The notes under the pieces: model-generated
Database searches by the model: none
What the model was told of the DNA's origin: nothing
What the model saw: only the letters and a program-made list of their open reading frames with translations
DNA from: Desulfuromonadales bacterium
GTDB lineage: Bacteria; Desulfobacterota; Desulfuromonadia; Desulfuromonadales; JACZKF01
Assembly: GCA_050485365.1 (NCBI GenBank)
Contig: JBJHBH010000003.1
Location: 4,127 to 68,126, forward strand
Reading direction: 5' to 3'
Length of the DNA stretch: 64,000 bases
Part shown: piece by piece, positions 9,144-29,773 of the stretch
Numbering within the stretch: the first letter of the stretch is position 1
How the letters are laid out: every line of letters starts with the position of its first letter
Position numbers and translations under genes: made by a program

Positions 9144-10397
9144 CTAGAACCTCCCCCCATGATGATGGCAGTCCCGGCACGAGACGACCTCCCAGTCGTC
9201 GCCGGGGCCGAGATAACCGGGTTCGCCGTGAAGCTGGGTTATGTAGTCCCGGTTATGGCAACGGACGCAGAGCGGCAGCAGATTGTTCGGCGCCGTCGCG
9301 GTGATGGTCTCACCGAGATTTCCACCGTTGACACGGCGCCGCAGGAGCATGATGTTCTGCGATCCGTGCGGCTCATGGCAATCGAGGCATGACATAACGA
9401 AATTGTTCTTGGTCGAAGAAGCCGCAAGATAGGGCTCGGCCCACCGGGGAGTCTCGTAGCTGTACGGATGCCCCTCTCTCGGGCGGGCGCCGTGCTTGTC
9501 CTGATTCTCTCCGGTCGTCCCCCAGTTGATCCTGCGCAGATTGCGGTTCAGGGTCGTGCTCCAGATGGTATTTGCGGGGTTGTGGCATTCGGTGCAGAAG
9601 CCGACGTAATCCGGCGTCTTGGCCCCGTCCGCGTCGCCGACGCCGGCCGGCTCACGGCTGAGATCGAAGACGTAGGGCGCCTCGTAGGAGAGGTACGAAG
9701 CCATCAGCTCCGTTTCTCCCCAGAGCCGTGAGCGATCGCTCGGTTTTGAGATGGCGCTCAGCAGGGGGAAGCCCGGCTTTGAACTGTCCCCGTTGCGCCT
9801 CGCGAGATGGGGATTGTGGCAGGCACTGCAGGGGTTGCTGTGCTCATCGAACCACGGGTAGGCCGTGTTGGTTCGAGCGTAGTTCCAGATGTCGAAGAGG
9901 TTGTGGTATGACTCCTGATTGAACGCCTCCAAAATAGACTGCGGACCGCTTCCGGACGCAGCCCCCCCGAACGTCGCGCTGTAATCCTGATTTATCACCT
10001 GCTGACCCGAGTCGCCGCTGTGACAGAAGAAACAGAAGTTGTCCGTCTCCATATAGAGGTTCTGGGTGCGTGCCGAATTGAAATTGCGATAGAAGAGTAC
10101 GTAAGGTGCCCCCCCGCTTAAGGGTTGCGGCGCCGCGCCGTCGAAGCTGGCGTGCATCTGGTGGCAGTGGGCGCAGTTGCCTGTGGCATACTCAGCGAAT
10201 CTCGGCTCGATGGCAGAGCGGTTTACGCCGTGCATCCCGTCGCCGTGGGCCGAGTTGCGGTACGTCCCCCCCCAGAGCGGTGCGGCGACAACGAGTCCGA
10301 GCATTGCGGCGAAGAGCGTGATGACGATCGCGCGACCTGATCCGACCTTGTCGCGCAGAAATGGCCGCCCGATCTTCGAAGCGTTACGATGATCCAT
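9144..10397 (-). CDS. Multiheme c-type cytochrome, 7 CXXCH
   Basis: I place the start at MDHRNASKIGRPF (10397) with a TM/signal segment AIVITLFAAMLGLVVAAP. Motifs are CAHCH, CFFCH, CSACH, CTECH, CLDCH, CVRCH and CRDCH. The first motif is CHQMH. The start overlaps the upstream stop by 14 nt. The longer track ORF (to 10814) is read-through of the upstream gene. Confidence 0.8.
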   Translation of the reverse strand: MDHRNASKIGRPFLRDKVGSGRAIVITLFAAMLGLVVAAPLWGGTYRNSAHGDGMHGVNRSAIEPRFAEYATGNCAHCHQMHASFDGAAPQPLSGGAPYVLFYRNFNSARTQNLYMETDNFCFFCHSGDSGQQVINQDYSATFGGAASGSGPQSILEAFNQESYHNLFDIWNYARTNTAYPWFDEHSNPCSACHNPHLARRNGDSSKPGFPLLSAISKPSDRSRLWGETELMASYLSYEAPYVFDLSREPAGVGDADGAKTPDYVGFCTECHNPANTIWSTTLNRNLRRINWGTTGENQDKHGARPREGHPYSYETPRWAEPYLAASSTKNNFVMSCLDCHEPHGSQNIMLLRRRVNGGNLGETITATAPNNLLPLCVRCHNRDYITQLHGEPGYLGPGDDWEVVSCRDCHHHGGRF

Positions 10398-11766
10398 CGC
10401 TCTGCCCCTCTGCGTCATCGCCGAAATCGGCCGGTGGGAATTCTTCGACAATCTCCTCGACGATCTCTTCACCTTCAAAATCGTCGTCGCTCGTCGGAGC
10501 GTCCTCTTCAGGCATCGCTTCAACCGCCTCACTCTCCTCCCCTGATTGTTGCGCAGGGGGCGGCGGCGCTGAGAAGAGGGGGAATTCCGGAATGTAATCG
10601 ACGTCCAGGACCTGCACTCTGCGGTTGAAGAGGTCGGAGACGATGAGCTGCCCCTCCCGGTTGATGGCGAGATCCGAGGGGAAATTGAACCAACCCGGCG
10701 CCTCCCCCCGACCGCCGACTTCGAACTGGAATCTTCCCGACAGATTGTAGGCGAGAATGGTGTGGCGCATGAAATCGGCCACGTAAATAAGGCCGCGCTC
10801 CTCATCAATAACAAGGCCGCGGGGCTGACTCAGCCTGCGGGGGCCTCCCCCCTTTTCACCAAAGGAAAAAAGGAACGTCTCATCGGCGCTGTAGACATAG
10901 ACCTTGCTCGTTTCGGCGCTGACCAGATAGAGATTGCCGGCCCTGTCGATGACCACATTGCGCACCCTGACGGGGCCGAGGCCGGGGCCGGATCGAGCTT
11001 CTTCTTCCTGCTGACGGCTTCTGGGACGAAACTCTTCGGGGATATCGCCTCGGGATCTCTGCCTGGCTTCGATTTCGTCCTCCAGAGCCTTCTTATCCTG
11101 CTGCGCCGCAAGCCGTTCGGCCGCGGCGGCGACCGCCTCGCGATCGGCGATGACATCCATCGGCTCAAGCATGCGAAGAAAGGTTCCGTCGCCGTCGAGT
11201 ACGATGACCCCCCTGCTCGATTCGCCCGTCAGGTAGATCAGCCCGTCGCGGCTCACCGCCAGCTTGCCGGGAGAGAAATTTGCGAGATTGGGGATGTCGT
11301 CGAGCAAAATCTCCCGGTCGACAAAAAAAGCGGCATTCAGGATGGTGATGCGGGGGGTCGGGTTCGCCGCCGAGCGGCTCTGGGTGACGTAGACTCTGCC
11401 GTCCGGCGCTACATGCATTCCTCGGGGGGCGAAAACGCCGCGTCCGGCTCCGATCGATACGCGAGGGTAAAAGTCCGGCCCGTAGACCACCACCCGGGCG
11501 CTGCCGCCATTGACGAGATAGATTTCCTCCTCGATCGGATCGTAAAAGACGGACGAAGGATAGTTCAGTAACCGTCCATCGTCATCCGTGGTGATCTGCG
11601 CGATGGAGATGGCCGGATAGGACGCCAGGCCCGGCGCCGGAGCGAAAAAGGCGAGCAGGCACAGCACAAAAGCCCCCAAACCCAAGAGGCGCCGGCCGCG
11701 ATTCCGTGACTCAAAAGGGCTGTGACCCCTTCTCTCGGCTCTATCTGTGACATCGACTGCAGACAT
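10384..11766 (-). CDS. NHL-repeat beta-propeller protein with a charged insert and an acidic C-terminal tail
   Basis: Signal/TM segment LLGLGAFVLCLLAFFAPAPGLA. NHL-type blades include GRVYVTQ, GLIYLTGE, GNLYLVSAE, GLIYVADF and GQLIVSDLFNRRVQVLD. The tail reads EESEAVEAMPEEDAPTSDDDFEGEEIVEEIVEE. I prefer the start MSAVDV at 11766 (GGGGAGG upstream); the alternative is 11814. Confidence 0.75.
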   Translation of the reverse strand: MSAVDVTDRAERRGHSPFESRNRGRRLLGLGAFVLCLLAFFAPAPGLASYPAISIAQITTDDDGRLLNYPSSVFYDPIEEEIYLVNGGSARVVVYGPDFYPRVSIGAGRGVFAPRGMHVAPDGRVYVTQSRSAANPTPRITILNAAFFVDREILLDDIPNLANFSPGKLAVSRDGLIYLTGESSRGVIVLDGDGTFLRMLEPMDVIADREAVAAAAERLAAQQDKKALEDEIEARQRSRGDIPEEFRPRSRQQEEEARSGPGLGPVRVRNVVIDRAGNLYLVSAETSKVYVYSADETFLFSFGEKGGGPRRLSQPRGLVIDEERGLIYVADFMRHTILAYNLSGRFQFEVGGRGEAPGWFNFPSDLAINREGQLIVSDLFNRRVQVLDVDYIPEFPLFSAPPPPAQQSGEESEAVEAMPEEDAPTSDDDFEGEEIVEEIVEEFPPADFGDDAEGQSDGSS

Positions 11767-12904
11767 GGCCTCCCCTACCGTCGGCAAACAAAATGTATCT
11801 GTAGGATGACCCATGAGGATCGTGGCAGCTCACGCAGGTGAGCTTGCGTCCCGGTCGCCGCCTCTCCGACGGTCCCTCGACCGGGTGCCCCCCTACAGGG
11901 TGTCCCCGCCTGATGCCGACGTATCCCTGATGACAACTGACGCAGAGCTCGTTTATCGAATCGTGAAGTATCGCTTCGTGATCCGACGCATGCGGATCGT
12001 GACAGGACACGCACCCCTTCGGCCCGTGGAGAATGCCGTGAGTGAAGCGCGCCCCGTTTCTTTGTATCAGACTTTCCATATCGCTGTGGCAGGCGATACA
12101 GAGATCGGACGCCCCCCCTGCCCAGAGCTGATATCTGTTCTTGTCGCCATGGGGGTTGTGACAGAGAGTGCAGCCGCCGGCGACCATCGGGCCATGGATG
12201 CTTTTTCGAGAGCGCCAATCCTTTTTTCCGGTGTGGCAGGCGACGCAGGTCTCCTCGATCTTTCCCGTCGGAAACCCGACGCGAAACGGCTGCGCGAACT
12301 GCTGATGGCATGCGAGGCATTGCTTGTTGACCGACGTGCTGTGCTGCCATGGCGATTGTTCGAGAAGGTTGCGATGGCAGCTCGCGCACGATTCCTGCGC
12401 CCGAAGACCGACCGGCTCCACGGGGGTGGTTTTTTGCAGATCGTGGCATTGGGCGCAGATGTGGGGGAGTTGGCCGTTTCGGTGAAAGAGATAGACGTCG
12501 CTCCCCAGGGTATTCGGATTCAAGGCGGCGCGCACGGGACGGTAATTGATTACCAGCCGCTCCGCGCCGGGGTGAATGGTAAAGCTGTTCAGGTTTGGCT
12601 GAAGGGGGAGTCGGAAGTGGAGATAATTATCGTTCAGAATTTCCCTGACCACCGCCGGGTCGACCCTCCTTTCGTTCGCCTCCACCCAGACCTGGGAGCC
12701 TTCCCTGTGTGGCCGGCGCACCACGAGGTGAGCCTCCGCATGCCTGCCGACGATCGTTGCGCCGGAAGGTGGGGTCAGAATCTCGATACCGGAGGCGAAA
12801 GCCAAGTTTCTGGCCGAGATGCCCTCCAGCCCAAACTGGCACAGAAGGACCAGAAGAAAGCTGAAGACGGCCCGGGCCGGAGTTGAGCATCTATAACGGT
12901 CCAT
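11741..12904 (-). CDS. Multiheme c-type cytochrome, 10 CXXCH, with an N-terminal non-heme domain
   Basis: I take the start at MDRYRCSTPARAVFSFLLVLL (12904), which avoids overlap with the upstream gene. About 150 aa are heme-free. They are followed by CAQCH, CASCH, CLACH, CVACH, CTLCH, CIACH, CVSCH x3 and CSRCH. Confidence 0.8.
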   Translation of the reverse strand: MDRYRCSTPARAVFSFLLVLLCQFGLEGISARNLAFASGIEILTPPSGATIVGRHAEAHLVVRRPHREGSQVWVEANERRVDPAVVREILNDNYLHFRLPLQPNLNSFTIHPGAERLVINYRPVRAALNPNTLGSDVYLFHRNGQLPHICAQCHDLQKTTPVEPVGLRAQESCASCHRNLLEQSPWQHSTSVNKQCLACHQQFAQPFRVGFPTGKIEETCVACHTGKKDWRSRKSIHGPMVAGGCTLCHNPHGDKNRYQLWAGGASDLCIACHSDMESLIQRNGARFTHGILHGPKGCVSCHDPHASDHEAILHDSINELCVSCHQGYVGIRRGHPVGGHPVEGPSERRRPGRKLTCVSCHDPHGSSYRYILFADGRGGHVCSRCHR

Positions 12905-12945
12905 AAAGAATCCATTACTGAAGGCAAAGATTTCCCTTTTTCCTA

Positions 12946-14406
12946 TCACTCCAGTCCCGCTAGCCCCAACGGCCGCGCACCGAGGTGGACCCACCCGATA
13001 AGCTGGTTGACGTTGGAGTCGACCACGGCCAGGGCGCCCGCCTTTTCGTCACCGACGTAGAGTCTGCGATAGGCCCGATTGAAGGCCATCTCCAGCGGCC
13101 GTCCAAGTCCGTGAATCTCCCTGACGACTCCAAGCTGCCCCGGGAACAGGACGGAAACCGTCCCATTCTCGTAATTGCTTACGTAAATCTGGTCTCCATT
13201 GAAGAGAAAACGGCGTGGTCCGAAGCCGACATCGAGGCGTCGCTGAAGCTGATTGGCGGAAAAATCATAAATCGCCACGGAGTGATCACCTCTTTCGGCG
13301 ATATAGAGTTCCCTGCCAACCATGAGCAGCCCCTCCGGAGAGTTTCCGGTGCGAATCGCTCTAACCTCGCGCAGATCGGTCGGGCTGTGGAGGGTGACGG
13401 TCTGAGTGAGTTCCGCCGAGACGGCGAGAAGATTCGCATCATGCAGAAAAGTCGCATAGGTGGGGCGATACCCGAGTCGCTCGCGTCCGGCACTTCGGCC
13501 GCTGCCCAAATCGATCTGATTGAGATAGCTGTTGCGCTCCTCCAATACATACGCCCAGCGACCGTCCGGACTGATCGTCATAAAGGTCGGGATCTCTGTC
13601 AGAGGGATGTGAATGAAATCGACAACCCTTTGGGACAGTAGATCGACTGTTTTTATGGCCGACTCCCCGGATGCGAGCACGTAGAGGCGCCTGCGGGAAG
13701 GATCGGGGTCCATGGCCAGATAGGTCGGCTGCCCCTTGATCCCGAACGAGTCGGCCACCCAGTTCTTGTCGCTTCGGATCACGAAAACAGTGTCGATCTC
13801 CGGGCAGGCGACATAGACCAGATCGACGAGCAGTTGCCTGAGCTCGAAGGCGAGCGTCATCACCGGGTGCATGATCTCAGGCTGATTGAGTGTTTCACGC
13901 ACATCCCAGGTGATAAATAGACTGCGGCTATCGTTTTGTGACAGGGAAAGGACAGAGGGAAATGCGATCTCGACCCGCGTCGACAGAGCAGCGAAAGATT
14001 CATATCGACCGTCGCCTTTACGCACCGCGCTGCCCGTCACATCGAAGCGCAGACGGTGGTAATCCCCTGGTCGAAGCGAGCGCCCTCCGACAAAGACCTG
14101 AGCAGCGCCAATCTGCGCGGAATCGAGGTTCTGCGGCCCCGAGTCGATGGGGAGCCAGACCCCTGCGGTGAGAATTTCAATGGCGGCGATCTCCAATTGC
14201 ACATCCGGACCGTCCGCTTCCTTGAGGTTCAGGAAGAGGCTGATACGGGCGCCGTCGTCGCCGTCGCGAGAAATCTCCGCCATAGGCCACGTCGGCGTCG
14301 ACGTCTTAAACCCCGCCTGGCAGCCCACCAGAAGCAAGGCCGAAAAGAGCAGCACCAGGTGAGAAATGATCTGATTGGAGATTTTCTTCCCAGCTCCCAA
14401 TTCCAA
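12946..14406 (-). CDS. Lipoprotein: DUF4382-like N-terminal domain plus YVTN/YncE-type beta-propeller
   Basis: Lipobox LLLVGC. The N-terminal part has the pattern VFVGGRSLRPGDYHRLRFDV..VEIAFPSVLSL. Repeated blades follow: LYVLASGESAIKTVDL, AYVLEERNSYLNQIDL, LYIAERGDHSVAIYDF, IYVSNYENGTVSVL and LYVGDEKAGALAVVD. Confidence 0.7.
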   Translation of the reverse strand: MELGAGKKISNQIISHLVLLFSALLLVGCQAGFKTSTPTWPMAEISRDGDDGARISLFLNLKEADGPDVQLEIAAIEILTAGVWLPIDSGPQNLDSAQIGAAQVFVGGRSLRPGDYHRLRFDVTGSAVRKGDGRYESFAALSTRVEIAFPSVLSLSQNDSRSLFITWDVRETLNQPEIMHPVMTLAFELRQLLVDLVYVACPEIDTVFVIRSDKNWVADSFGIKGQPTYLAMDPDPSRRRLYVLASGESAIKTVDLLSQRVVDFIHIPLTEIPTFMTISPDGRWAYVLEERNSYLNQIDLGSGRSAGRERLGYRPTYATFLHDANLLAVSAELTQTVTLHSPTDLREVRAIRTGNSPEGLLMVGRELYIAERGDHSVAIYDFSANQLQRRLDVGFGPRRFLFNGDQIYVSNYENGTVSVLFPGQLGVVREIHGLGRPLEMAFNRAYRRLYVGDEKAGALAVVDSNVNQLIGWVHLGARPLGLAGLE

Positions 14407-14418
14407 ACTCCTTAAAAA

Positions 14419-15510
14419 TCAATCCTTCGTCGTATGACAAACCGCACAGCCGTTGAAGGCGGGCTGCCCCGTATGCGGATCGTTCCCCGGCCACGAGCGA
14501 TATCCCCATCGCATCATGGCCGGATAGGGCGAGCCGTGGGGCCGATGGCACGAAACACACGCGACCAGATCGGATCCTCGATTGATATTGGAAAAATTCG
14601 CGTCTTCTCCGGTCACATTCTGGCGCGCCACAGGGACCATGGGGTTGTAGGTGGAGAATTCGGTGAATTCCCCGGCATCCGGTATCGAGAAATCGACGGG
14701 GTGACGGATCCATGCGGCGTTGGCCGTCGTTTCGCTGTGAAACCGTCCATGGCAGCCGGCGCATTTTTGGTTGATGGAGCCGGTTTCGAGATAGCTCGAA
14801 AAAGATCCGGCCTTCCCCTGATAGACGTTATGCTTGTTGGGGTGGGGATTTTGTTCCCAATCCGGGTCCTCGATCCCACTTACCCCTTCCGGTGGCGGCA
14901 CAGGTCCTCCGTCCCGCTGCATCACCGATCCCAGGAACCGGTACCACCCCTCTTCTCTTCCCGCGACGGCGCTGTTGCCGTCGGCATGATGGTGCGGGAC
15001 GTGGCAGCCGTTACAGCCGCTCTGTGCCGTCGCCAACGTTCCGTGACAACTCGTGCAGTCCTCGGCGCGGGCGGCCCCTCCGGGTGCCCACGAAAACCTG
15101 GAATCATGGCTGGCGATGCCGTGAACATTGTGGCCGAACTGATCCCCCTGGAGGACCCAGTGAAAGTTCCCCCCCGCCAGAGCCGAAGTGCTCGATCCGT
15201 CGGGGGGGTATGTCGGTTCGGTCAGGTTGAAAACGATGGGGACCCGCGAATCCCCCAGCGGGACGATCGTCTCCGGACCTGCATGGCTGTGACATCCGAC
15301 GCAGTCGGTCTTGAGCAGTTTGCCAAAGGCCTCGTTCCGGGAGACCCTCTGCCCGGTGCTGTCGAGGGAGAAAGCGACCACCCTCCCCTGCTCGCTGTTG
15401 TGCATCGTATGGCAATCGGAGCACAGCCCCTGAACCGCCCCGTCGCAAAGGATGGGCGTGACCGCGGTCGCGGCGAGTAGGCCCATGGCTATCCAATTGC
15501 GAAGGTGCAT
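14419..15510 (-). CDS. OmcS-family multiheme cytochrome, 7 CXXCH
   Basis: Start MHLRNWIAMGLLAATAV (15510). Motifs are CSDCHTMHNSE, CVGCH, CTSCH, CNGCH, CAGCH, CVSCHRPHGSPYPAMMRW and a C-terminal CAVCHTTKD. Also IRHPVDF. Collinear with the other paralogs. Confidence 0.8.
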   Translation of the reverse strand: MHLRNWIAMGLLAATAVTPILCDGAVQGLCSDCHTMHNSEQGRVVAFSLDSTGQRVSRNEAFGKLLKTDCVGCHSHAGPETIVPLGDSRVPIVFNLTEPTYPPDGSSTSALAGGNFHWVLQGDQFGHNVHGIASHDSRFSWAPGGAARAEDCTSCHGTLATAQSGCNGCHVPHHHADGNSAVAGREEGWYRFLGSVMQRDGGPVPPPEGVSGIEDPDWEQNPHPNKHNVYQGKAGSFSSYLETGSINQKCAGCHGRFHSETTANAAWIRHPVDFSIPDAGEFTEFSTYNPMVPVARQNVTGEDANFSNINRGSDLVACVSCHRPHGSPYPAMMRWGYRSWPGNDPHTGQPAFNGCAVCHTTKD

Positions 15511-15667: not shown

Positions 15668-16555
15668 TCAACGGCTGAAGACCTCTACCCGTCCGTTCCC
15701 CTCATCGACCACGCAGAGCCGCCCCCATGGATCGAAGCGGATCTGCCGGGGGAAGTGGAGCTGTCCCCTTGCATGACCGGGGCCGAGAAAGCGGTAGCGG
15801 AAGCCACCGTCCTGGCTGTAGGCCAGGATGCTGCTCTTGTGACGATCGAGGACATAGAGAAAACCGGGACCGACGGCGAGGGAAACAGGAAAGTCGACCT
15901 GCTCGCCCAAGCTGATGTTTCTCGCCACGGTGCCGTCCGAGCGGAAGCGGATGACCCTCTTCCCCCGGGTCTCCAGCGCCCAGACTTCCCCTTCGGCGAC
16001 GACGAAGTCGCTGAGCCCCGCCGGACTTCGGGGGTCGCCGAAGCGCTGCTCCACCGTCAGGTCGTCTGACAGGCGAAGAACCTGGCCGCTGGCGCGGTCG
16101 AGAACGAACAGCTTATTCCCGTCATGGGCGATGCGGTCTGGGAAGATCTGCCGTCTGCCATCGCGCAGCACGAAAGGCTTCACCTCGCGGGCGGCGAGGT
16201 CGATGCGGGTGATGCTGTTGCGCCCCTTCTCCACCACCCAGAGACGACCGTCATCGAGACGCACCATGTCGAAGGGAGCCTTCAGCCGGTCGTCTGCGGT
16301 AAAGGCCCGAAGCATCTCGCCGTCGCGCCCGAAGGAGACGAGACGGTTTCGGCCCGCGTCGACGGCATAGTAGCGCTCGGCATCCATGTCGAACGCCACC
16401 GCCGCCGGCATGTACATGGCGTTGCCGGGGGTGTCGATCTTCAGGCTCATCTGCCATTGCCAGGGCGACTGGGCCAGGGCAGCGACCGGCAGCAGAGAAA
16501 AGATCGCCGCCAGTAAAAACCACTTCAGAGGTCGTATTGATATGTCATTCCTCAT
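15668..16555 (-). CDS. Secreted NHL-repeat beta-propeller protein
   Basis: Signal peptide MRNDISIRPLKWFLLAAIFSLLPVAALA. Repeated blades include YYAVDAGRNRLVSF, LWVVEKGRNSITRIDL, LFVLDRASGQVLRL, VWALETRGKRVIRF, LYVLDRHKSSILAY and LCVVDEGNGRVEVF. Confidence 0.75.
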   Translation of the reverse strand: MRNDISIRPLKWFLLAAIFSLLPVAALAQSPWQWQMSLKIDTPGNAMYMPAAVAFDMDAERYYAVDAGRNRLVSFGRDGEMLRAFTADDRLKAPFDMVRLDDGRLWVVEKGRNSITRIDLAAREVKPFVLRDGRRQIFPDRIAHDGNKLFVLDRASGQVLRLSDDLTVEQRFGDPRSPAGLSDFVVAEGEVWALETRGKRVIRFRSDGTVARNISLGEQVDFPVSLAVGPGFLYVLDRHKSSILAYSQDGGFRYRFLGPGHARGQLHFPRQIRFDPWGRLCVVDEGNGRVEVFSR

Positions 16556-16693: not shown

Positions 16694-17881
16694 TCACCGA
16701 TTCCTGTGGCACTGCACGCACAGGTCGCGGGTCCCTCTGAATCTGAGATGGTTCTCGTACTCGGTCCCCTTGCTCGTGTGACAGCTCGCGCAGGTCATCA
16801 TCTGGCCGGTTCGCGGGTCGTAGACCGTCTCTCCGATCGGATGGGTGAACTGCTCGTGAGTCACATGGCAGGTGACGCAGACGCTGTTGATGGGTCCTTT
16901 GGCCATTGCCGGGTGATTGGAGCCGTGCGGCGCATGGCAGTCGCTGCACGAGGTGTGCTCCTCGTGCTTGAAGCGCGCATCCTCCATCCGCCGGAAGGTC
17001 GCATCATGACAGGTGCCGCAGACGTGGCGCTCCTTGCCTTTGAGCAGACTCTTCTTGTCGCCTGCGTGGGGCGAATGGCACGCAATGCAGCCGTTGCTGC
17101 CGAAGCGCACCAGATGATTGTGGGACGATGCCATCTGATCGCCGACCTGTGGATGGCAGGCGAGGCAGGTGTCGACGGTGACCGGCTCGTTCCGTCCACT
17201 GTGACAATCCCTGCAGCCGCCGGCGAAGGGCTCGTGCAGTACGTTGCGTATGAGCCCGGGGCGGTTGCTGCCGTGGGGACTGTGGCACGAGCCGCAGTTG
17301 CCGAGATCGGCGGGAAAGTTCGGGTGTTTCTGCCGCACCGAGGCCGCAGAATGGCAGTTCAGGCAGAGCGACTCCTGATCCCTGACCAGCAGATAGGGGT
17401 TTGACGACTGGTGAACTTCATGGCAGGAGGTGCACTGCCCCCGCGCATATGGCGTATGGGTGTTGCGATACTTTCTCGGCAGATCGCTGTGGCAGTCGAA
17501 GCACGTCTCGGAGAGCCGCTTTCCGAGAAGCCCAGGATGATCCGACGCGTGGGGATCGTGGCAGGAGAGACACTCCCCCCGCCGCACCGGCTGATGGACG
17601 ATCCCCTTGCCGTGCTTCTGCGCCGCGCCGGTATGGCACGAGTAGCACAGGCTTTTCACTTCCTGCTGGAGCAGGCCGGGGTACTTGGCCACATGGGGGC
17701 TGTGGCAGGAGGCACAATCGCCGCGAGAGGCGGGCTGGTGCTTCACCCTCTTCTGAAAGGTGCTTCGCTCATGGCAGGAGAAGCAGTCCACGGCGAGGGC
17801 CGCCCCCTGCGCCGCCAGAAAGAGGACGAGGGTCGAGATCGAAACCAGAGCGAATCGCACGAATCGATGTAATGACATCAT
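16694..17881 (-). CDS. Multiheme c-type cytochrome, 16 CXXCH
   Basis: Signal peptide ..LVLFLAAQGAALA. I counted 16 CXXCH motifs, many as paired CxxCH..CxxCHxPH units. ATGA start/stop overlap with the upstream gene at 17878-17881. Confidence 0.85.
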   Translation of the reverse strand: MMSLHRFVRFALVSISTLVLFLAAQGAALAVDCFSCHERSTFQKRVKHQPASRGDCASCHSPHVAKYPGLLQQEVKSLCYSCHTGAAQKHGKGIVHQPVRRGECLSCHDPHASDHPGLLGKRLSETCFDCHSDLPRKYRNTHTPYARGQCTSCHEVHQSSNPYLLVRDQESLCLNCHSAASVRQKHPNFPADLGNCGSCHSPHGSNRPGLIRNVLHEPFAGGCRDCHSGRNEPVTVDTCLACHPQVGDQMASSHNHLVRFGSNGCIACHSPHAGDKKSLLKGKERHVCGTCHDATFRRMEDARFKHEEHTSCSDCHAPHGSNHPAMAKGPINSVCVTCHVTHEQFTHPIGETVYDPRTGQMMTCASCHTSKGTEYENHLRFRGTRDLCVQCHRNR

Positions 17882-22153: not shown

Positions 22154-23654
22154 CGACCCACATTTCCGATAGCGGTGCGGCTGGTTCTTCCTTTTTGATC
22201 TGGACTTCCCTTTTGCCGAACTGCCGGAAGAGATCGTCTACCTCTCTGCGCGTCCTGTTGCCGAGGACATCCTGCACCATGAGAAATCCCTGAATCTGGT
22301 CATTCTCCTCACCGGTCGGCACCTCGAAGCCGACCTGAGCGGGCAATTCGTTCCCCTCGGCCATCTTCAGAATGCGCCCCTCCCTCGTCCACATCTCCAT
22401 CCGCCAGTATTCGAGGGGAACCCTGCCGTCGTGGGCGAACTCGACGGTCATCTCCCTGTCGTTTTTCTCGACGGCGAGCTCCACCTGCGGCGCTCTGCGG
22501 TTCAGCTCCACCTTCCGGGTAGCCTTGGCCGAGTTTCCGGCTTCGTCCCAGATTTCGAGGACCACCTCGTATTCCCCGTTCACGACCGGGATGTCGGTAT
22601 TGCCGCGCCCCGACCAGATGAGGGCTTCGGGCAGATTGCCGCCCCCGGCGTCGATCCCCACGACCTCTCCGCGATCGTTCAGAAAAGAGAGACGCCAGCG
22701 CGCGATCGGCTTTCGAACGAGCAGACGGGGCTGGATGATCAGATCCCTTCGGAAAACCGGGACATCCCCTTCGATGCTCGCCCCCTTCAGATCGATTTCG
22801 AAGAGCGGAGGGGTCCCGTCGACGACGTAGGAGCCGAGGAGCGCCGTTTCATTGCGGCCGTACAGAGGCCATTCGAGAAAGAGAGAGACCGGGAACCGTC
22901 CGTCCTTCTCCCCCGCGATCCAGGAGGACTCGAAGGTCAGCCCGTCATCGCTCACCGATGCGGCGTGGATCTGGTCGTCCGATTTGAAGAAGACCCGGGG
23001 GGGGCGCCCTGAAGGCCAGCCGTTTCGAAGCCGGACGCGGGCCGTAAATTCCGCCCCGGGGCGAAGGTGGCTCGGGTGCAGCACGATGGAGTCGATACTT
23101 ATGGTCGCTGCGCGCTGCATCTCGTTGATGATCTCCCAAGGCCACTTCGAAACGAGGTCATCAAGAAGAAAGGGGTGCAGATCGGCCACCGAAGACGGCT
23201 CGCCGATGCCGAGAACCCTGCGACCGTCAGAGGCGCTGAAATGTCCGACATACGTCCAGACGGTGCGGGCATCGGTGGTGCGGACCAGTTGCAGGGTCAA
23301 ACCCATGGACGGCGTCGGCCGCTCCTTCATCTGACTTACGGTTCCCAGCAGCACGAACGGGGCTCCCAACTCTTCCCTGACACGGGATATGTGATACGTC
23401 TCCAGATGGCCGACGGTGCGGATGCGGTTGTGGACCATGAAGGCGATGACCGTCTCCTGACTCTCGATCTCGTTGCCGGCCGTTCTCAAACGTTCGGCAA
23501 GGATCCGGGTAAAGGGGAGATTCACCTCGTTTCTCCCCCTGGTGAGCTCCTGCAGCGGAAAGACGGCTATGGACGGAGGAGCCGCAGCAGCAGCGACGGC
23601 CGGAAATAGAACGCAAAGAATGACGAGTCCGATCTTGGTCATTTTATTGAGCAC
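22143..23654 (-). CDS. Secreted protein: LpoB/DUF799-like N-terminal domain plus Ig-like (FlgD-Ig type) C-terminal domains
   Basis: Signal peptide ..FPAVAAAAA. The N-terminal domain has IAVFPLQEL, LGAPFVLLGTV and GLTLQLVRTTDARTVW. The C-terminal part has ALIWSGRGNTDIPVVNGEYEVVLEIWDEAGNSAKAT, typical of FlgD-Ig-like folds. Confidence 0.45.
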   Translation of the reverse strand: MLNKMTKIGLVILCVLFPAVAAAAAPPSIAVFPLQELTRGRNEVNLPFTRILAERLRTAGNEIESQETVIAFMVHNRIRTVGHLETYHISRVREELGAPFVLLGTVSQMKERPTPSMGLTLQLVRTTDARTVWTYVGHFSASDGRRVLGIGEPSSVADLHPFLLDDLVSKWPWEIINEMQRAATISIDSIVLHPSHLRPGAEFTARVRLRNGWPSGRPPRVFFKSDDQIHAASVSDDGLTFESSWIAGEKDGRFPVSLFLEWPLYGRNETALLGSYVVDGTPPLFEIDLKGASIEGDVPVFRRDLIIQPRLLVRKPIARWRLSFLNDRGEVVGIDAGGGNLPEALIWSGRGNTDIPVVNGEYEVVLEIWDEAGNSAKATRKVELNRRAPQVELAVEKNDREMTVEFAHDGRVPLEYWRMEMWTREGRILKMAEGNELPAQVGFEVPTGEENDQIQGFLMVQDVLGNRTRREVDDLFRQFGKREVQIKKEEPAAPLSEMWVDEF

Positions 23655-23810: not shown

Positions 23811-23825
23811 TTTTTCCGCGAAGCG

Positions 23826-24425
23826 TCATCTGATCGTCGCCAGCATTCTGCTCACGAGAGTCAGTGTGACCTCGAAGGAGTTCTTCGGCGTCGTCCCGAA
23901 GAGCCGGTCCATCAGCGAGTAGCCGCTCCCCCGCCCGCTCGACTGCCACAGGACCATCCCCGTCTCGGTGTCGACGAGACGCAACGTCAGGGAGATTTCG
24001 GGGTAGACGGCCCCCCCGGTGCGGGCGCCCGCCTCCTGCTCGACGGAGCCGAGGATGAAGGCCTGGGTTCCGAGGCGCTGCCCCAGACGGCGCATGGTCG
24101 GTCCGTCCATGGGCGCACCCGCCTCGATCGCTTCGGCCCGCAGCGTGCTGTCGACCCGCCCCTTGTCCACCACGTCGAACAGGCCCGATGCGAGGAGTTG
24201 GGTCATGGTGATCTCGCGGGTGCGCTGAGCGGCGCCGGCCCCGCCGCCGAGGTTCTCGAAGGGGAGAACGGCCACCGTCTGGATGTAGGAGAGATTGACT
24301 TCATCCCGCATGAAAGACTTAGTCTGATTGCGCCCGCTGCATGCGGAAAGAGAAATCGACAAGAAGACGAAAATCAGCAGGAGTGCGACAATTTTCTTCT
24401 GTTTCATCTCGTAGAAGTCCTTCAT
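23826..24425 (-). CDS. Lipoprotein with an LpoB/DUF799 (GNA1162)/PelC-like fold signature
   Basis: Lipobox LSLSAC. Motifs are TVAVLPFENLGG, LGTQAFILGSV and SLTLRLVDTETGMVLW. These are the same three blocks seen in 21428-22153 and in the N-terminus of 22143-23654. Confidence 0.55.
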   Translation of the reverse strand: MKDFYEMKQKKIVALLLIFVFLSISLSACSGRNQTKSFMRDEVNLSYIQTVAVLPFENLGGGAGAAQRTREITMTQLLASGLFDVVDKGRVDSTLRAEAIEAGAPMDGPTMRRLGQRLGTQAFILGSVEQEAGARTGGAVYPEISLTLRLVDTETGMVLWQSSGRGSGYSLMDRLFGTTPKNSFEVTLTLVSRMLATIR

Positions 24426-24562: not shown

Positions 24563-24577
24563 TATTGGCTTTTGCCC

Positions 24578-26683
24578 CTAAAGCCTCATCGCCAAAGAAA
24601 CCTGGAAGTTATAACTGTTCATCTCGGCGAGCGTGTAGTTGACCCGGCTCTGCATGGAGAAGGTCTGGCTGATGGACCAACTTCCATCGAGTCCGAAGCG
24701 GTTGGAGGTTTCTCGCCCCTGCGTGTGGCTGTATCGGAAATTCGCCCTCGTCTTGTGGGTGCGCAGCAATACCATGCTCATGTTGAAGGCGAGCGTATCC
24801 GGGGTGTCGGGCCCCGTCCAGCGGCGGGTGCCGGTCAGACGCATGGAGAGGAGATCCGACGGGCGATACCCGAAGCTCAGCGTCGAGTCTGAGCTCGAGT
24901 CCGTGGCGGTATCGGTCTCGGTCTGCCGGTAATTCGTCGCCAGATCCGCCGTCAGTTTGGGGTTGATGCGGGCGTTGAAGTTGATTCGGCTGCTGAAGGT
25001 GTCGATGTCGACGGCCTCACCGTCGTCGCGAAACCGGGTGCTCGTCACGTAGGACGCATTGAGCGAGGCGGTGAGGTCCGGATAGATGCGCGCCGTGGAG
25101 AAGAGGCTGTAGGTGTCGCTGGTGGCGGTTTTCTGCTCTCCGACGAAGCGCTCGGACTTTGTGGCGCCGACGGTGACGTTTAGGGTCGGCAGGGGAAAGG
25201 TCGCCACGATCAGAGAATACGAGCGGGCGAGCGTCTCCGGCGCGCCGGTCGAATTCAGGCGGGTTTCGCTGTACCCGAGCGAGGGCGAGACCGCTCGGTG
25301 GGGCGCCCATCGAAGGCCGCCGCTCAGAGAGCGGCGGGTCGATTCGGTGCTCAAATCGCCGGACGTGCTGTCCGACCTCTCGTACGTCACGCTGGAGGAG
25401 GCCGCCAGCGTTCGGGTGAGTTGAAGACGCATATTGGCCGTGGTGAGATGGCTCGTCCGGCGGCTCCCACCGTCGGCGTCGGTAAAAAAACTGATGACCT
25501 CCAGTTCGGTGACGTGCAGGGGGACACCGGAGTCGTTCGTCACCACGACCTTGACTTCCCGCGCGAAACGGCCCACGGGGACTTCGAACCGGCTTCGCTG
25601 CTCGTCGTACAGCGCAGGGAGATCCTCCGCCGCCAGTTCCCACGAATCGTCGAGAATACTGCGGGTGTAAAGGTTCCATCGGAGGGCTTCGACCTGAGCG
25701 GGGGCCAGAGGCGCGAAGGGGTCGTGATAGAGGAGGAATGCATCGATCTGTTCGCTCAAATCGAAGCGGATGCCGACATGCCCCCTTTCGAGAGGCTGAA
25801 TAGAGAGGGCCCTGCCGAACTCCCCTTCCCGATCGTTGTTCTGCAGAAGGGGATTGATCGTCAGCTGCACGAGCGCGGGGTCGGGCTCCTGCGTCGGATC
25901 GGAGGTCGCCGACGATGGCTCCCCCAAATCGAGCCGCCGCCGGAAGACGCCTTCTTCCGGAATCACGGCCGTGAAGTCCGATTCCGAATACTGAAACTGC
26001 TGCGAGAGTCGTACGCTGAGGCGGTTTCGCCAGAAGTTGCCGCCGGTTTCGGCCCGCACGAAGTGAGAATCCGACTCGCTTCGGCTCAGCTCGATTCTGT
26101 CTTCGCTTTCGTTGTGGCTGTAGGCGTAGAAGAATTGGGCCGCCAGCAGGTCCCAGTCGAAACCGAAGCCGTAGCGTGACGAGTGCGTGTCGAGGGTGTC
26201 GGAATCGCGGCTCGTCTCGACCGCTTCGCCGTAACTGAGCCAAAGGTTGGGCCAGAAGATGCGCTCCCAGTTGCTCCCCAAAGAAGCGTCCCACGAATAG
26301 GAAGTGAGACCCGGCCCCGACGAGCTGCGGGTCTCCGAGGCGGTGCCGAGAAGCCCCGCCCGGAAGATGTCGTTTGTCAGATTGAGATTGGCGGAAGGGA
26401 CGATCTGCTCGGACGATCTCCATCCGGTGCCGGATTCGCTTTGGGTCCGGGTGTAGCTGAGATTGAAGCCCGCCGAAATGGCATGGGTCGGCTGCCACGT
26501 TACCCCGGTGCCTGCGCCGAGACTGTAACGCTGCTGAAATGAGCGCCGCGTCTCGATGTTGTCCCCTCCCGACTCCCGATACTGCCAGAAGGCGCCGAAG
26601 TCGACGGCGAAGGCGGGAGCGGCGCCCCAGACAAAAAAAACCAGCAACAGGAGAGACAGTCTTTTGCCGACAAATAAAAGCAT
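24578..26683 (-). CDS. Outer-membrane beta-barrel protein (~700 aa) with a central non-barrel insert
   Basis: I take the start at MLLFVGKRLSLLLLVFFVWGAAPAFA (26683). Both ends show alternating hydrophobic/polar strands rich in Y/F/W, S/T and R/D, for example RYGFGFDWDLLAAQFFYAYSH and NFRYSHTQGRETSNRFGLDGSWSI. Residues ~270-400 (..HVTELEVISF) look like a jelly-roll/discoidin-type insert. Confidence 0.55.
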   Translation of the reverse strand: MLLFVGKRLSLLLLVFFVWGAAPAFAVDFGAFWQYRESGGDNIETRRSFQQRYSLGAGTGVTWQPTHAISAGFNLSYTRTQSESGTGWRSSEQIVPSANLNLTNDIFRAGLLGTASETRSSSGPGLTSYSWDASLGSNWERIFWPNLWLSYGEAVETSRDSDTLDTHSSRYGFGFDWDLLAAQFFYAYSHNESEDRIELSRSESDSHFVRAETGGNFWRNRLSVRLSQQFQYSESDFTAVIPEEGVFRRRLDLGEPSSATSDPTQEPDPALVQLTINPLLQNNDREGEFGRALSIQPLERGHVGIRFDLSEQIDAFLLYHDPFAPLAPAQVEALRWNLYTRSILDDSWELAAEDLPALYDEQRSRFEVPVGRFAREVKVVVTNDSGVPLHVTELEVISFFTDADGGSRRTSHLTTANMRLQLTRTLAASSSVTYERSDSTSGDLSTESTRRSLSGGLRWAPHRAVSPSLGYSETRLNSTGAPETLARSYSLIVATFPLPTLNVTVGATKSERFVGEQKTATSDTYSLFSTARIYPDLTASLNASYVTSTRFRDDGEAVDIDTFSSRINFNARINPKLTADLATNYRQTETDTATDSSSDSTLSFGYRPSDLLSMRLTGTRRWTGPDTPDTLAFNMSMVLLRTHKTRANFRYSHTQGRETSNRFGLDGSWSISQTFSMQSRVNYTLAEMNSYNFQVSLAMRL

Positions 26684-26810
26684 TGGCAACCGCTGATCTC
26701 CCGTAGCTGAAAACCGATCCAACCCCCAACCAAAGATTAATACAATTATATTAACTTATACTTAATTTCTCCGCAAGCCTTTTTGCACTTCCTTCCGAAG
26801 AAATGAAATT

Positions 26811-26839
26811 CGGCAGTCTACGCAGGTTGCAGACTGCCG
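26811..26839 (-). terminator. Terminator-like hairpin downstream of the second tandem OmcS-type gene
   Basis: CGGCAGTCT, an 11-nt loop, then AGACTGCCG. On the minus strand it is followed by AAUUUCAUUUCUU. Confidence 0.5.
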
Positions 26840-27008
26840 ATAAAAATCCAAAGCGACCCCCCCGACCCTGCGGCCCCCCCCTGTGAAACAGGAGGGGCAA
26901 AGCAAGGCAATGTCCCCCCTATGCAATAGGGGGGAAGGCCTACGCGGCCAGGGGGGTCAGATTTCGCCTTCAGCCTTTCGCCTTTTACCCATCGCCTCGC
27001 GCCTGCCC

Positions 27009-28343
27009 TTAAGGCATCGCCCCGCCCTTCGCCGCATGGCACGCAAGGCACCCTTCGCCGGCATGGGTCTGGTTGCCGGTGCCGGCGCGCATGCCGCTCG
27101 TCAGGGCGGCGTAGTCGAAGCGCAGCAGCCCGTCATAAGGGGCGGCGTGGGCCATGTGGCAGGAGAGACACATGACCATGTCGCGCCCGGGAACCACGTC
27201 GGCGCTCGCGGTCATTCCGGCGTTGAAGAAGTCGCTCGGACGGGCGACGGGGGCGGTGATGGAGTATTCGGTGTAGGCGGCGTACTCGCCGAGGTCCGGG
27301 ATGACGTAGTCCGAAGGGTGACGCAGAAAGGCGCCGCTCGTCCCGTTGGTGTCGCCCGAAGAGTGGAAGGTGCCGTGGCAGGTGATGCAGAAGCCGGTCA
27401 TCGTCGCGTTCGGCACATAGAGGCGCGACGTCTGCGACGACGTCCCCAGATGGCACCGGTTGCAGGTGTTGGTCGTGCCGTAGTCGGTGGCCTTGATCAG
27501 GTCGTTGATGTACCCGCCGTGATATTCGTTGTGGCTGCTGCTGTCGACATTTCGCCAGCGGTCCTGCTCGTTGCCGTAGCCTCTCAGCCCCCGGATGAAG
27601 CGGTAGCTGTGGGCGAGGGGGTTGTCGTAAAAATTCGGGTGCCCACCGGGGCCGCCGTCGGCCTTGAAGCCGTCGTAATTGTCGTGATGAGCGCCGCGAA
27701 AGTAGGTGACACTCGACGCGGTGGGGCCGTCGTATCCGCTGAAGGCGGAGAGGCCGGTGCGGTAGGTCGGCGGCGCGCCGGTAAAGGGGTCCCCTTCGTC
27801 GAGTTGCTGGCCGCGGATGCCGTGGCACCCCATGCTGCCGGCGCAGGTGAATTTGCCGACGTCGAAGGTGAAGCCACTCGCCTCGTGGGGCCTGAAGCCG
27901 GGGGGGTTGTTCAGGACATCGTCCCTCGGGACGAGATCGACGACGTTGTGCCCCTTGCGGCTACCCGGCTCCCCCTGCCCTTCCTTGGTGCCGGAGATGT
28001 AGGCGAAGTTGCCGCCCGCCAGGTCGTCGTCGAAGTTGTGATAGACCTGCGGCACCCTGCTTCCGCCAGCCATCTGCCAGACCGAGTCGTCGGCGAGGGG
28101 GCTCGCGTGGCAGGCGATGCAGTCGTAGCGCAGCAGGTTGCGGTTCGTCTCCCCCGTGACGGTAGTGCTGCGCCCCTGCAGCGCCACCGGCCTCCCTTCT
28201 TCGCTGTTGTGCATGGTATGGCAGTCGGCGCACTGGCCGACAAGACCGGCCCCGGCTGCCGTCGCGACGAGGCCGAAGAGCCACACACCCGTAAGGGCAC
28301 CGATGAGGGACATAATGCGGGACTTCTTCAATTCATGCTCCAT
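27009..28343 (-). CDS. OmcS-family multiheme cytochrome (downstream gene of the tandem pair)
   Basis: Motifs are GQCADCHTMHNSEEGRPVA, CIACH, VPQVYH, DLAGGNFAYISG, SRKGHNVVD, CAGSMGCH (CX5CH), CNRCH, CITCHGTFHSS, FLRHPSDYVIPD, MCLSCHMAHAAPYDGLLRF and CLACHAAKG. The start is uncertain: MEHELKK at 28343 or MSLIGAL at 28313. The track start 28409 has no RBS. Confidence 0.8.
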   Translation of the reverse strand: MEHELKKSRIMSLIGALTGVWLFGLVATAAGAGLVGQCADCHTMHNSEEGRPVALQGRSTTVTGETNRNLLRYDCIACHASPLADDSVWQMAGGSRVPQVYHNFDDDLAGGNFAYISGTKEGQGEPGSRKGHNVVDLVPRDDVLNNPPGFRPHEASGFTFDVGKFTCAGSMGCHGIRGQQLDEGDPFTGAPPTYRTGLSAFSGYDGPTASSVTYFRGAHHDNYDGFKADGGPGGHPNFYDNPLAHSYRFIRGLRGYGNEQDRWRNVDSSSHNEYHGGYINDLIKATDYGTTNTCNRCHLGTSSQTSRLYVPNATMTGFCITCHGTFHSSGDTNGTSGAFLRHPSDYVIPDLGEYAAYTEYSITAPVARPSDFFNAGMTASADVVPGRDMVMCLSCHMAHAAPYDGLLRFDYAALTSGMRAGTGNQTHAGEGCLACHAAKGGAMP

Positions 28344-28418
28344 ACCGTATGAGAAACGATCATTCACATTTGGATGTTCAACCTGTGAGAATGCCTGATG
28401 CGCTCCCATTTAAAGTAG

Positions 28419-28452
28419 GCCGGTACCCGAAGCGCACTTCGGGTACCGGCCG
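28419..28452 (-). terminator. Perfect 15-bp hairpin between the two tandem OmcS-type genes (attenuator, stabiliser or partial terminator)
   Basis: GGCCGGTACCCGAAG-CGCA-CTTCGGGTACCGGCC, 35 nt after the stop at 28487. On the minus strand it is followed only by a weak U-tract (UACUUUAAAU). Confidence 0.55.
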
Positions 28453-28486
28453 GATGTTCATGTCAATTCAAACCTGGCAGCCTCAT

Positions 28487-29773
28487 TTAATTCTTGGGCA
28501 CCCCTTTGGTGGTATGGCAGGCGAGGCAGCCGGAGACGCCTTCGGTGTTGCCGGCGACCATGTCGGCATAATTGAAGCGCAGCATGCCGTCATGGGGGGT
28601 TGCGTGGGCAGCGTGGCACGAAAGACACATGACCATGTCGGTGCCGGGACGAACGACGCTGGCCGCGGGGAGGTCGCTCAAGTCGGGACGGGCGACCGGC
28701 GCCGTGATGTCGTACACGGTGTACGCGGCATACTCGCTGGCGTCAGGAATGACGTAGTCGGAGGGGTGGCGCAGGAAGGCGCCGCTCACGCCGTTGTTCC
28801 CGCCGTCGCCCGAGGAGTGGAAGTTGCCGTGGCAGGTGGCGCAGAAGTTGCTCATCGACTGGTTGGCGATCTTCAGGGTCGAGTCGAGGGTCATGCGGGC
28901 GCTGATGCCACTGGTGTCACTGCCGGGCACATGGCAGCTGTTGCAGCTCGCAATCCGGAACTCCGAGTCGGCGCCGAAGTACTCGTTGTGGCTGGTGCTG
29001 TCGACGTTCTGCCAGCGGGCCTCGGTGTTGCCGATCCCCTTGAGGCCGGCGATGAAGCGATAGCTGTCAGCGATATACTGCCCGTCATGGACACCGGCGG
29101 TGATCTGCTCGGGATCCTTGAGGCCGTCGTAGTTTTGGTGGTGCGCGCCGCTGACGGCGGGGATGCCTCTGCGCTTGACAGTGATGTTTTGACCCTCATT
29201 ATCTGGGTCCGGAACAGAGCTCAGCAACTGCGAACGGGTGCCGTGACAGCCGGCGGCGCCGGCGCAGGTGAAGTTGGCGAACTGCAGGCCCATGTAGTTG
29301 GCATGGGTATTGCCCATGGCTGCACCCGTTTCGGGATCGACATAGCCCCCGCGGAAGTCGCCGGGGGGAACGGTGAGACCGCCGAAGTCGGGGTCGCCCG
29401 CGCCGAAGATGTCGACGACGTTGTGCCCCTTGCGGTTCCCTTCCAGAATGTGCATGAAGTTACCTGCGGCGAGGTCAGTCGTGCCGCTGTGATAGACCTG
29501 GGGGACCTTGCTGCCGCCCTCGAGGGTGACGATGTGCTCGCTTCCCCCCTGAGCGTGGCAGGAGATGCAGTCCATCCGCAGCAGGTTCTGGACGGGTGCT
29601 ACTGAGGTGTCGCTGGATGCCGTCTCCGAGTTCCAGACCTGTGCGACGGGGCGCCCTTCTTCGCTGTTGTGCATGGTGTGGCAGTCGGCGCATTGGCCGA
29701 TGAGGCCCTGAGCACTGGCCATTGCCGGCAAGGCGAAAAGGCCTAGGGCGGCGATTGCAATCATTTTCTTCAT
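28487..29773 (-). CDS. OmcS-family multiheme cytochrome (first gene of the tandem pair)
   Basis: Start MKKMIAIAALGLFALPAMASA, with GGAGG 8 nt upstream. Motifs are CADCHTMHNSEEGRPVA, CISCH, CAGAAGCH (CX5CH), CNSCH, CATCHGNFHSS, FLRHPSDYVIPD, MCLSCHAAHATPHDGMLRF and CLACHTTKG. Confidence 0.85.
   Translation of the reverse strand: MKKMIAIAALGLFALPAMASAQGLIGQCADCHTMHNSEEGRPVAQVWNSETASSDTSVAPVQNLLRMDCISCHAQGGSEHIVTLEGGSKVPQVYHSGTTDLAAGNFMHILEGNRKGHNVVDIFGAGDPDFGGLTVPPGDFRGGYVDPETGAAMGNTHANYMGLQFANFTCAGAAGCHGTRSQLLSSVPDPDNEGQNITVKRRGIPAVSGAHHQNYDGLKDPEQITAGVHDGQYIADSYRFIAGLKGIGNTEARWQNVDSTSHNEYFGADSEFRIASCNSCHVPGSDTSGISARMTLDSTLKIANQSMSNFCATCHGNFHSSGDGGNNGVSGAFLRHPSDYVIPDASEYAAYTVYDITAPVARPDLSDLPAASVVRPGTDMVMCLSCHAAHATPHDGMLRFNYADMVAGNTEGVSGCLACHTTKGVPKN

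Follow-up and report, generated by a model that had tools for sequence, protein, structure and literature searches.

A probable osc-type locus for cytochrome-filament biogenesis in an uncultured Desulfuromonadales lineage

The window analysed here is a stretch of 64,000 nucleotides (nt) from a Desulfuromonadales bacterium (assembly GCA_050485365.1, contig JBJHBH010000003.1, positions 4,127 to 68,126 of the forward strand). It contains an unbroken minus-strand chain of 15 open reading frames (ORFs; window positions 9144–29788), which we number W01 to W15 in the order of transcription. This region is probably an osc-type locus for the biogenesis of cytochrome filaments, in an arrangement common to Desulfurivibrio alkaliphilus and some Desulfuromonadales metagenome-assembled genomes (MAGs). 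A first-pass annotation, made from the sequence alone, had read it as a system that charges and assembles cytochrome filaments: this was essentially right, but such a system has already been described as the osc (omcS-companion) cluster, GSU2504–GSU2493 of Geobacter sulfurreducens (Shen et al. 2025, Cell Chem Biol 32:239, as cited in later articles). The cluster type is therefore a known one, named and functionally dissected in 2025 and called widespread in the title of that article. The year 2025 also saw the characterisation of the OmcS-like pair in the closest cultured relative (PMC12545173). To this cluster type the window adds one more member.

Of the routes by which respiratory electrons are moved micrometres away from the cell, OmcS-type filaments are the one best understood, and their export and assembly are only recently being worked out, in Geobacter alone. 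Here the whole companion set is kept in a distant uncultured lineage and in about 45 further loci, a conserved machinery tied to iron-oxide respiration coupled to sulfide oxidation. What we add is the PelC-like fold of a small lipoprotein, a split OscG, an OscC/OscD-like pair relocated downstream, a hairpin between subunit and accessory genes and a fourth OmcS-family paralog; the first three of these, together with extra 10- and 7-heme cytochromes and a CX5CH motif at the heme-3 site, may be new features.

Gene order and OmcS-family cytochromes

The ORF translations confirm 15 genes, all on the minus strand and tightly packed from 29773 down to 9144, as the first-pass annotation had it; the plus-strand ORFs within 9144–29788 are overlapping shadow frames in DNA of about 61% GC. 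The start/stop overlaps listed earlier are all present once likely internal starts are used (W01 at 29773, W08 at 19827, W14 at 11766 and W15 at 10397). W08, the 26-heme gene, has a stop (17878–17880) that overlaps the ATG of the 16-heme gene W09 (17879–17881), and the most likely start of W08, the ATG at 19827 (Met13 of its ORF), overlaps the stop of the peptidyl-prolyl isomerase (PPIase) gene W07 (19827–19829). Further overlaps lie at 10384–10397, 21428–21452 and 22143–22153; that at 11741–11766 holds if the NHL gene W14 starts at 11766.

The cytochrome genes have 6, 6, 26, 16, 7, 10 and 7 CxxCH motifs, i.e. 78 in all. Adding one CX5CH in W01 (CAGAAGCH) and one in W02 (CAGSMGCH) gives 80 hemes, in line with the earlier count of about 80. 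The gene labels proposed at that stage stand for the most part: PPIase, the two NHL propellers, two of the LpoB-like proteins and the multiheme cytochromes have Pfam support. The outer-membrane barrel label is an inference, since the 714-amino-acid (aa) product of W03 has no Pfam match, and the DUF4382 match of W12 falls below threshold (E=0.077).

W01 (28487–29773) encodes a predicted secreted OmcS-family cytochrome with 6 CxxCH and one CX5CH, which is the putative filament subunit. W02 (27009–28343; start probably at Met23 of its ORF) is its tandem paralog, 57% identical in a 49-sequence alignment (A3). W11 (14419–15510), a third family member with 7 CxxCH, appears OscC-like by its family and by its adjacency to a propeller gene. 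Searched alone against the PDB with phmmer, W01 has OmcS as its sole match, a weak one (E=9e-7) restricted to N- and C-terminal pieces, and single-sequence searches gave no useful PDB matches for W11 and W15. A profile made only from the lineage of the window (alignment A6: 46 proteins, zero Geobacter sequences) matches OmcS (6EF8) at E=2.8e-27, continuously over residues 8–349 of 407, and the next PDB match is at E=1e-3. The W01 and W11 families match each other at E=6.5e-94 (hhalign). On this profile evidence W01, W02 and W11 belong to the OmcS family, with which they align over their whole length, as the first reading of the sequence had supposed.

In alignment A3 the identity of W01 to OmcS-type proteins is 24–30%, and there is little or no variation in heme motifs 1, 2, 4, 5 and 6 or in H117, H177, H336 and H390. 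There are disparities with OmcS: its heme-3 motif (CSSCH) is aligned to a CX5CH in W01, the heme-3 site of both W01 and W02 being of this type, and the two proteins carry one additional CxxCH. In nearly all family members the mature N-terminus has a C..CH[TVI]MH motif, and C..CHxxK[DN] is found at the C-terminal end; the corresponding motifs are CADCHTMHNS and CLACHTTKG in W01, CSDCHTMHNS and CAVCHTTKD in W11. The second histidine of CHTMH is kept in W01, W02, W11 and 42 of the 47 aligned sequences. In OmcS, as published, heme 5 receives one axial ligand from the neighbouring subunit. This ligand is reportedly His16, the second histidine of CHTMH, for which a literature search gave no confirmation.

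A fourth OmcS-family paralog lies beyond the region covered by the first-pass annotation (1025–2170, minus strand; 381 aa, 6 CxxCH and one CX5CH). It is 41% identical to W01/W02 over its full length (E=7e-93). Its first heme motif, CIDCHTDS, is without the second histidine of CHTMH, and judging from this motif the paralog could be a variant that does not polymerise or that ends the chain.

Conservation of the cluster and relation to the osc system

In D. alkaliphilus AHT2 all 15 genes recur in unchanged order (CP001940.1:451494–473173, here locus L001). BLASTP of the window against this locus gives collinear best matches for 15 of 15 genes, at 41–72% identity (59% for the PPIase W07, 55% for W15). 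The two upstream OmcS-like genes of L001, the orthologs of W01 and W02, map exactly onto the coordinates of DA_402 (468410–469705) and DA_403 (470176–471483); W01 is 58.5% identical to the former and W02 55.9% identical to the latter. According to the report on this pair (Nature 2025, PMC12545173), no multiheme cytochrome is more strongly induced than DA_402 when ferrihydrite respiration is coupled to sulfide oxidation, with a log2 fold change of 11.3 and 51459 reads per kilobase per million (RPKM), and DA_403 is induced on ferrihydrite with a log2 fold change of 8.1. The same source describes the AlphaFold2 (AF2) oligomer of DA_402 as filament-like, with a template-modelling (TM) score of 0.56 between its monomer and OmcS. 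The two loci are not identical, however. The matches of the upstream paralogs are crossed, W01 corresponding to the second gene (DA_402) and W02 to the first (DA_403), i.e. window 27009–29773 against positions 1691–4764 of L001, which suggests an order swap or gene conversion. The W13 equivalent of D. alkaliphilus is shorter (231 aa, 7 hemes), and the flanking genes are different.

A scan of a collection holding one genome per species, made with the PPIase alignment, gave 39 loci, from Desulfuromonadales MAGs, Pelovirga, Desulfobulbaceae, Desulfurivibrionaceae, a SEEP-SRB2 MAG and others; its matches included neither Geobacter nor D. alkaliphilus, nor the window itself. As judged by tblastn and by hidden Markov models (HMMs) of the families, the order of the core W03–W10 is conserved in essentially all of the 39 loci that are long enough to show it. 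W11 and W12 usually come after W10 and W13–W15 are often next, but W15 precedes W12 in Desulfobulbaceae-type loci: the order of W11–W15 thus varies among sublineages. In total, about 45 independent loci, drawn from other genomes and metagenomes, share the accessory gene order. Of the 24 window-type loci of at least 14 kb, 23 have an OmcS-family gene, and the Geobacter-type loci described below have the same accessory order, so that the accessory genes do co-occur with OmcS-family genes, as expected from the first-pass annotation. The gene order is far from chance.

The heme numbers are stable too. Exactly 26 and 16 CxxCH are found in nearly all loci, window-type and Geobacter-type, and these unvarying counts argue that the machinery is one conserved unit; in L004, L028, L036, L038 and L040 the two cytochromes are fused into one ORF with 42 CxxCH. 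The small-lipoprotein family comprises at least 409 clusters in a large protein collection, and the matches listed in its profile search were close relatives only. Apart from the loci above, one contig (L025, JAJRZR010000025.1) has a lone PPIase paralog of 32% identity with the rest of the cluster not there; its only other family match, to a 7-heme gene resembling W11, lies on the opposite strand, and the same MAG has a full cluster (L010).

Geobacter-type loci were reached through OmcS itself. With the OmcS segments of the PDB alignment as query, a 61%-identical protein was found on a contig (L043), G. sulfurreducens OmcS not being among the matches listed, and a metagenome scan with the PPIase of L043 gave 20 further loci (L044–L063). 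Apart from W13 and W15, for which these loci have no counterpart, all accessory families have HMMs that match them in order, with E-values of 1e-21 to 1e-182 in the loci with complete genes. The Geobacter-type order is as follows: an NHL gene homologous to W14, one or more hexaheme OmcS-like genes, a propeller of about 470 aa, the barrel, a small lipoprotein, a protein of about 375 aa, the PPIase, the 26-heme and 16-heme cytochromes and an NHL gene equivalent to W10, after which there are no further family matches. The W12 HMM matches the propeller between the OmcS-like gene and the barrel (E~1e-35), and that of W03 a gene of 733–792 aa (E down to 7e-55). Matches are at about 1e-33 for W04, about 1e-32 to 1e-43 for W07 and about 1e-176 for W08. 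The protein of about 375 aa is composed of two LpoB/PelC-like domains, the first closest to W05 and the second to W06.

The eight genes that follow the cytochrome in these loci fit the published osc block. In G. sulfurreducens, oscC is GSU2501 (OmcS-like), oscI is GSU2495 (26 hemes, about 70 kDa) and oscJ is GSU2494, and the eight-gene block GSU2500–GSU2493 always accompanies a GSU2501-like hexaheme gene; OscD is involved in morphology, OscE, OscF and OscG in secretion and OscH in folding (Shen et al. 2025). The published data also include a superposition of an OscD model with 473 residues aligned, and they show that OscF has far fewer substitutions than OscE or OscG. From gene order, size and heme count, and by way of the Geobacter-type loci, not of a direct alignment with G. 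sulfurreducens, we infer that W12 corresponds to OscD, W03 to OscE, W04 to OscF, W05 and W06 together to OscG, W07 to OscH, W08 to OscI, W09 to OscJ and W10 to OscK, with W11 OscC-like. All eight families OscD–OscK would then be present in the window along with OmcS-like genes, in a rearranged order. The earlier statement that nearly every accessory function is unassigned is accordingly out of date, at least for the roles credited to Shen et al. (2025).

The window shares with the Geobacter osc cluster the proximity of OmcS-family genes to a propeller, a barrel, lipoproteins, a PPIase, 26- and 16-heme cytochromes and an NHL protein. It differs in that the OscC/OscD-like pair comes after the NHL gene, whereas it comes before the barrel in Geobacter; in that OscG is represented by two genes, one of them with an extension of about 330 aa; and in that a GSU2505-like NHL gene is located downstream. 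The first-pass annotation had called the region an expanded version of the omcS locus. This is true of the added 10-heme and 7-heme cytochromes and of the extra OmcS paralogs, but the counterparts of W12 and W14 lie upstream of the barrel in Geobacter-type loci, and the cluster is therefore rearranged and not simply expanded.

Accessory genes, transcription units and a proposed assembly route

The product of W03 (24578–26683), about 700 aa long and provided with a signal peptide, is a putative outer-membrane barrel and the OscE equivalent by position. The profile of its family gave no significant match among PDB sequences, neither to PelB nor to another barrel. Its family consensus ends with ARF, and a period-2 amphipathicity over the last 314 aa (z=3), a heuristic, is mildly supportive of a barrel. 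A conserved segment in the middle of the barrel family (WDLY.S.DG..W ... YLKLV, residues ~271–396 of W03) shows a non-significant likeness to F5/8 type C and CBM32 domains (E=0.05–0.4).

The three following genes encode LpoB-like proteins, as first annotated: two are recognised by Pfam, and the third, the 503-aa product of W05, by hhalign (probability 97–98%). W04 (23826–24425), the predicted OscF equivalent, is a lipoprotein (lipobox LSAC) with a Pfam LpoB/CsgG match. Its AF2 model has a predicted local distance difference test score (pLDDT) of 92, and the best Foldseek matches of this model are PelC (5t0z, 5t10, 5t11) and PelBC (9h80), with E-values of 5e-11 to 3e-8 and target TM-scores of 0.71–0.83. 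PelC chains fill ranks 1–15, and PelBC 9h80 follows at rank 19; the PelC chains come from G. metallireducens and Paraburkholderia; GNA1162, FlgT, LpoB and CsgG rank below PelC. In its model, thus, the small lipoprotein W04 folds like PelC. W05 (22143–23642) has no Pfam family of its own; its first ~150 aa match the W04 family (hhalign 98%), so that the count of three LpoB-like proteins is correct, and are followed by a C-terminal extension of about 330 aa. W06 (21428–22153) is a PelC/LpoB-like lipoprotein (lipobox FSGC). By profile comparison the N-terminal domain of W05 and W06 are both homologous to W04, and they are the probable equivalents of the first and second domains of OscG.

PelC is a dodecameric lipoprotein ring located beneath the PelB barrel. 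The likeness of the window to this exporter consists in the superposition of W04 on PelC and in the location of an outer-membrane-directed lipoprotein gene beside a large barrel gene. Disparities are equally clear: the cargo of PelB–PelC is a polysaccharide, while that of the window would be a folded or heme-loaded protein; the exporter has one PelC-like domain and the window three different ones; and W03 is without a tetratricopeptide-repeat (TPR) region (no TPR match in Pfam) and without detectable likeness to PelB. As W03 is unlike PelB, the system may work like PelBC but is not a member of it.

The remaining accessory genes extend from W07 to W15. W07 (19827–21452), the putative OscH, is a periplasmic PPIase/chaperone of parvulin type (PPIC/Rotamase_2, E=1e-21). 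W08 (17878–19827) is a 26-heme lipoprotein cytochrome (lipobox VASC) and W09 (16694–17881) a 16-heme periplasmic cytochrome, the likely equivalents of OscI/GSU2495 and OscJ/GSU2494 respectively. W10 (15668–16555) is an NHL-repeat beta-propeller, equivalent by position to OscK/GSU2493, and W12 (12946–14406), the presumed OscD, a lipoprotein beta-propeller of YNCE/lactonase type. W13 (11741–12904) is a paired-CXXCH cytochrome with 10 hemes, whose first ~140 aa form a non-heme region. W14 (10384–11766) is a second NHL beta-propeller (Pfam NHL, ORF 10384–11814) with an acidic C-terminal tail. W15 (9144–10397) is a 7-heme cytochrome without PDB relative; its likeness to the OmcS family is confined to the C-terminal third (hhalign 97.5% over residues 263–383).

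Upstream of W01, on the same strand, is a sigma-70-like promoter candidate by consensus match (30018–30046, TTGACA-17-AATAAT, 11 of 12 positions, ~245 nt from W01); the same spacer has no relevant sigma-54 site, matches being fewer than expected by chance. The 286-nt gap between W02 and W03 includes a GC-rich 12-bp hairpin with a T-rich tail (26810–26840, minus strand), a putative terminator or attenuator, and then, before W03, an AT-rich stretch with TATAAT that is a putative internal promoter. At the equivalent position D. alkaliphilus has a weaker hairpin and a T-run. From W03 onward gaps are short or genes overlap, and directly after the last gene two small hairpins (9015–9073, minus strand), weak consensus matches, are candidates for the end of the transcription unit. 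From the promoter, the hairpin, the AT-rich spacer and the short gaps we infer two coupled rather than unrelated units, W01–W02 highly expressed and the accessory genes W03–W15 less so. The strong induction of DA_402 and DA_403 fits a separate, highly expressed subunit unit and is no proof of it.

The following route can be proposed for an osc-type locus of this kind. The first unit, from the promoter around 30030 to the hairpin at 26810–26840, would supply abundant secreted W01 and W02. The W07 PPIase would keep the subunits, exported by Sec, heme-loaded, proline-rich and largely loop-structured, competent for assembly. These would cross the outer membrane via the W03 barrel, which a periplasmic ring of the PelC-like domains of W04, W05 and W06 would feed, by analogy with PelB–PelC. 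Outside the cell, the subunits would join head to tail into a polymer, in which the conserved second histidine of CHTMH would ligate a heme of the neighbour as in OmcS. W08 and W09, with their 26 and 16 hemes, could form a chain of hemes through the periplasm by which the filament base is charged, and W10, W12, W14, W11, W13 and W15 may modulate or anchor assembly. The PelC-like fold of the small lipoproteins suggests this model of export by ring plus barrel; a preprint mentions a porin-type model of export, as well as large barrels in the OmcS and OmcE regions. The rearrangements among lineages and the histidine-less paralog are natural variants for dissecting assembly and termination.

Several points weigh against this interpretation. 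OmcS itself is the only member known to polymerise, no filament has been seen for proteins of the window lineage, and the AF2 model of W01 has a pLDDT of 42. W03 has no detectable likeness to PelB or to any solved barrel, and the heuristics that make it a barrel are weak. The link to the named Osc proteins is inferential, passing through loci reached at 61% identity and through published order, sizes and heme counts, and the identity of the inter-subunit ligand as His16 reportedly goes back to Wang et al. 2019. Concerning D. alkaliphilus, the accessible part of PMC12545173 names only DA_402 and DA_403 at this locus, with no accessory genes and no mention of "osc", and speaks neither for nor against co-expression.

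Three other explanations were weighed. The existence of more multiheme genes outside the cluster (30337–31713 and 1025–2170) could suggest that cytochrome and lipoprotein genes have come together by chance in a genome rich in cytochromes. Recurrence of this order in about 45 loci of different species and metagenomes, together with overlapping start and stop codons, makes this practically inconceivable, conserved synteny excluding chance adjacency. The region might also consist of two adjacent systems, functionally separate, with the osc machinery in W01–W10 and, in W11–W15, a module for extracellular electron transfer that is independent of it and has a different product. We consider this rather unlikely: if the Geobacter-type block does end at the equivalent of W10 and has nothing that corresponds to W13 and W15, homologs of W11, W12 and W14 are nevertheless found inside or just upstream of it, which places them in the same system; and if the order of W11–W15 varies, as with W15 before W12, W11 and W12 nevertheless come after W10 in almost every locus long enough. 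In addition, the gaps are of 61 and 12 nt and no terminator-like site separates W10 from W11.

A porin-cytochrome conduit was the last alternative: W03 would house part of the 26- or 16-heme cytochromes and the OmcS-like proteins would be monomeric terminal reductases at the surface. As in OmaB-OmbB-OmcB of Geobacter and MtrCAB of Shewanella, a barrel is encoded with a large lipoprotein multiheme and a periplasmic one, but the cytochromes of the window, with 26 and 16 hemes, are far larger. We know of no Pcc/Mtr cluster with a PPIase, PelC-like lipoproteins, propellers or OmcS-family genes. The PPIase and the three PelC-like lipoprotein domains point to the export of a substrate. Several cytochromes have weak Pfam matches to MtrC/MtrF domains and polymerisation is proven for OmcS alone; on the other hand, Geobacter genetics, as cited, put homologous genes in the folding and secretion of OmcS, and the DA_402 oligomer is predicted to be filamentous. 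The motif of the inter-subunit ligand is kept in W01, W02 and W11 and missing from the 1025–2170 paralog. On balance a conduit seems improbable to us, and an osc-type filament biogenesis locus remains the best explanation.

A more specific version of the osc-type reading can be formulated, to which we would give little credence. The Desulfurivibrio-type locus would then build a machine more complex than that of Geobacter: a hetero-ring of three PelC-like domains would feed a barrel unrelated to PelB, W11–W15 would form a membrane-proximal base or a second filament, and the 1025–2170 paralog would be a chain terminator or cap. If true, the combination of a three-domain hetero-ring with a PelB-unrelated barrel would be a protein-fibre translocon new for the PelC fold.

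Flanking genes

Immediately upstream of the cluster promoter is a gene for a 458-aa multiheme protein (30337–31713, minus strand). The first ~180 aa of its product contain 5 CxxCH and one Cx4CH and are followed by a non-heme region of about 280 aa. It weakly matches the multiheme protein 4qo5 and is not kept at this position in D. alkaliphilus.

On the other side, convergent with the end of the cluster, lies a ResB-like cytochrome c biogenesis gene (7577–8968, plus strand; Pfam E=4e-89), with no CcsA-like partner ORF evident immediately downstream. Two minus-strand genes come next, one for a 683-aa STT3/PglB-like membrane protein (5260–7311) and one for a 929-aa protein of the sulfatase superfamily with a GDPD domain (2458–5247); their products are candidate modifiers of surface proteins or of the envelope. 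A preprint describes glycosylation genes near OmcE filament clusters. Between the 1025–2170 paralog and the cluster, window positions 2001–8000 form a low-GC island that holds the sulfatase-superfamily and STT3/PglB-like genes, with a GC content of 0.485–0.524 against about 0.61 in the cluster.

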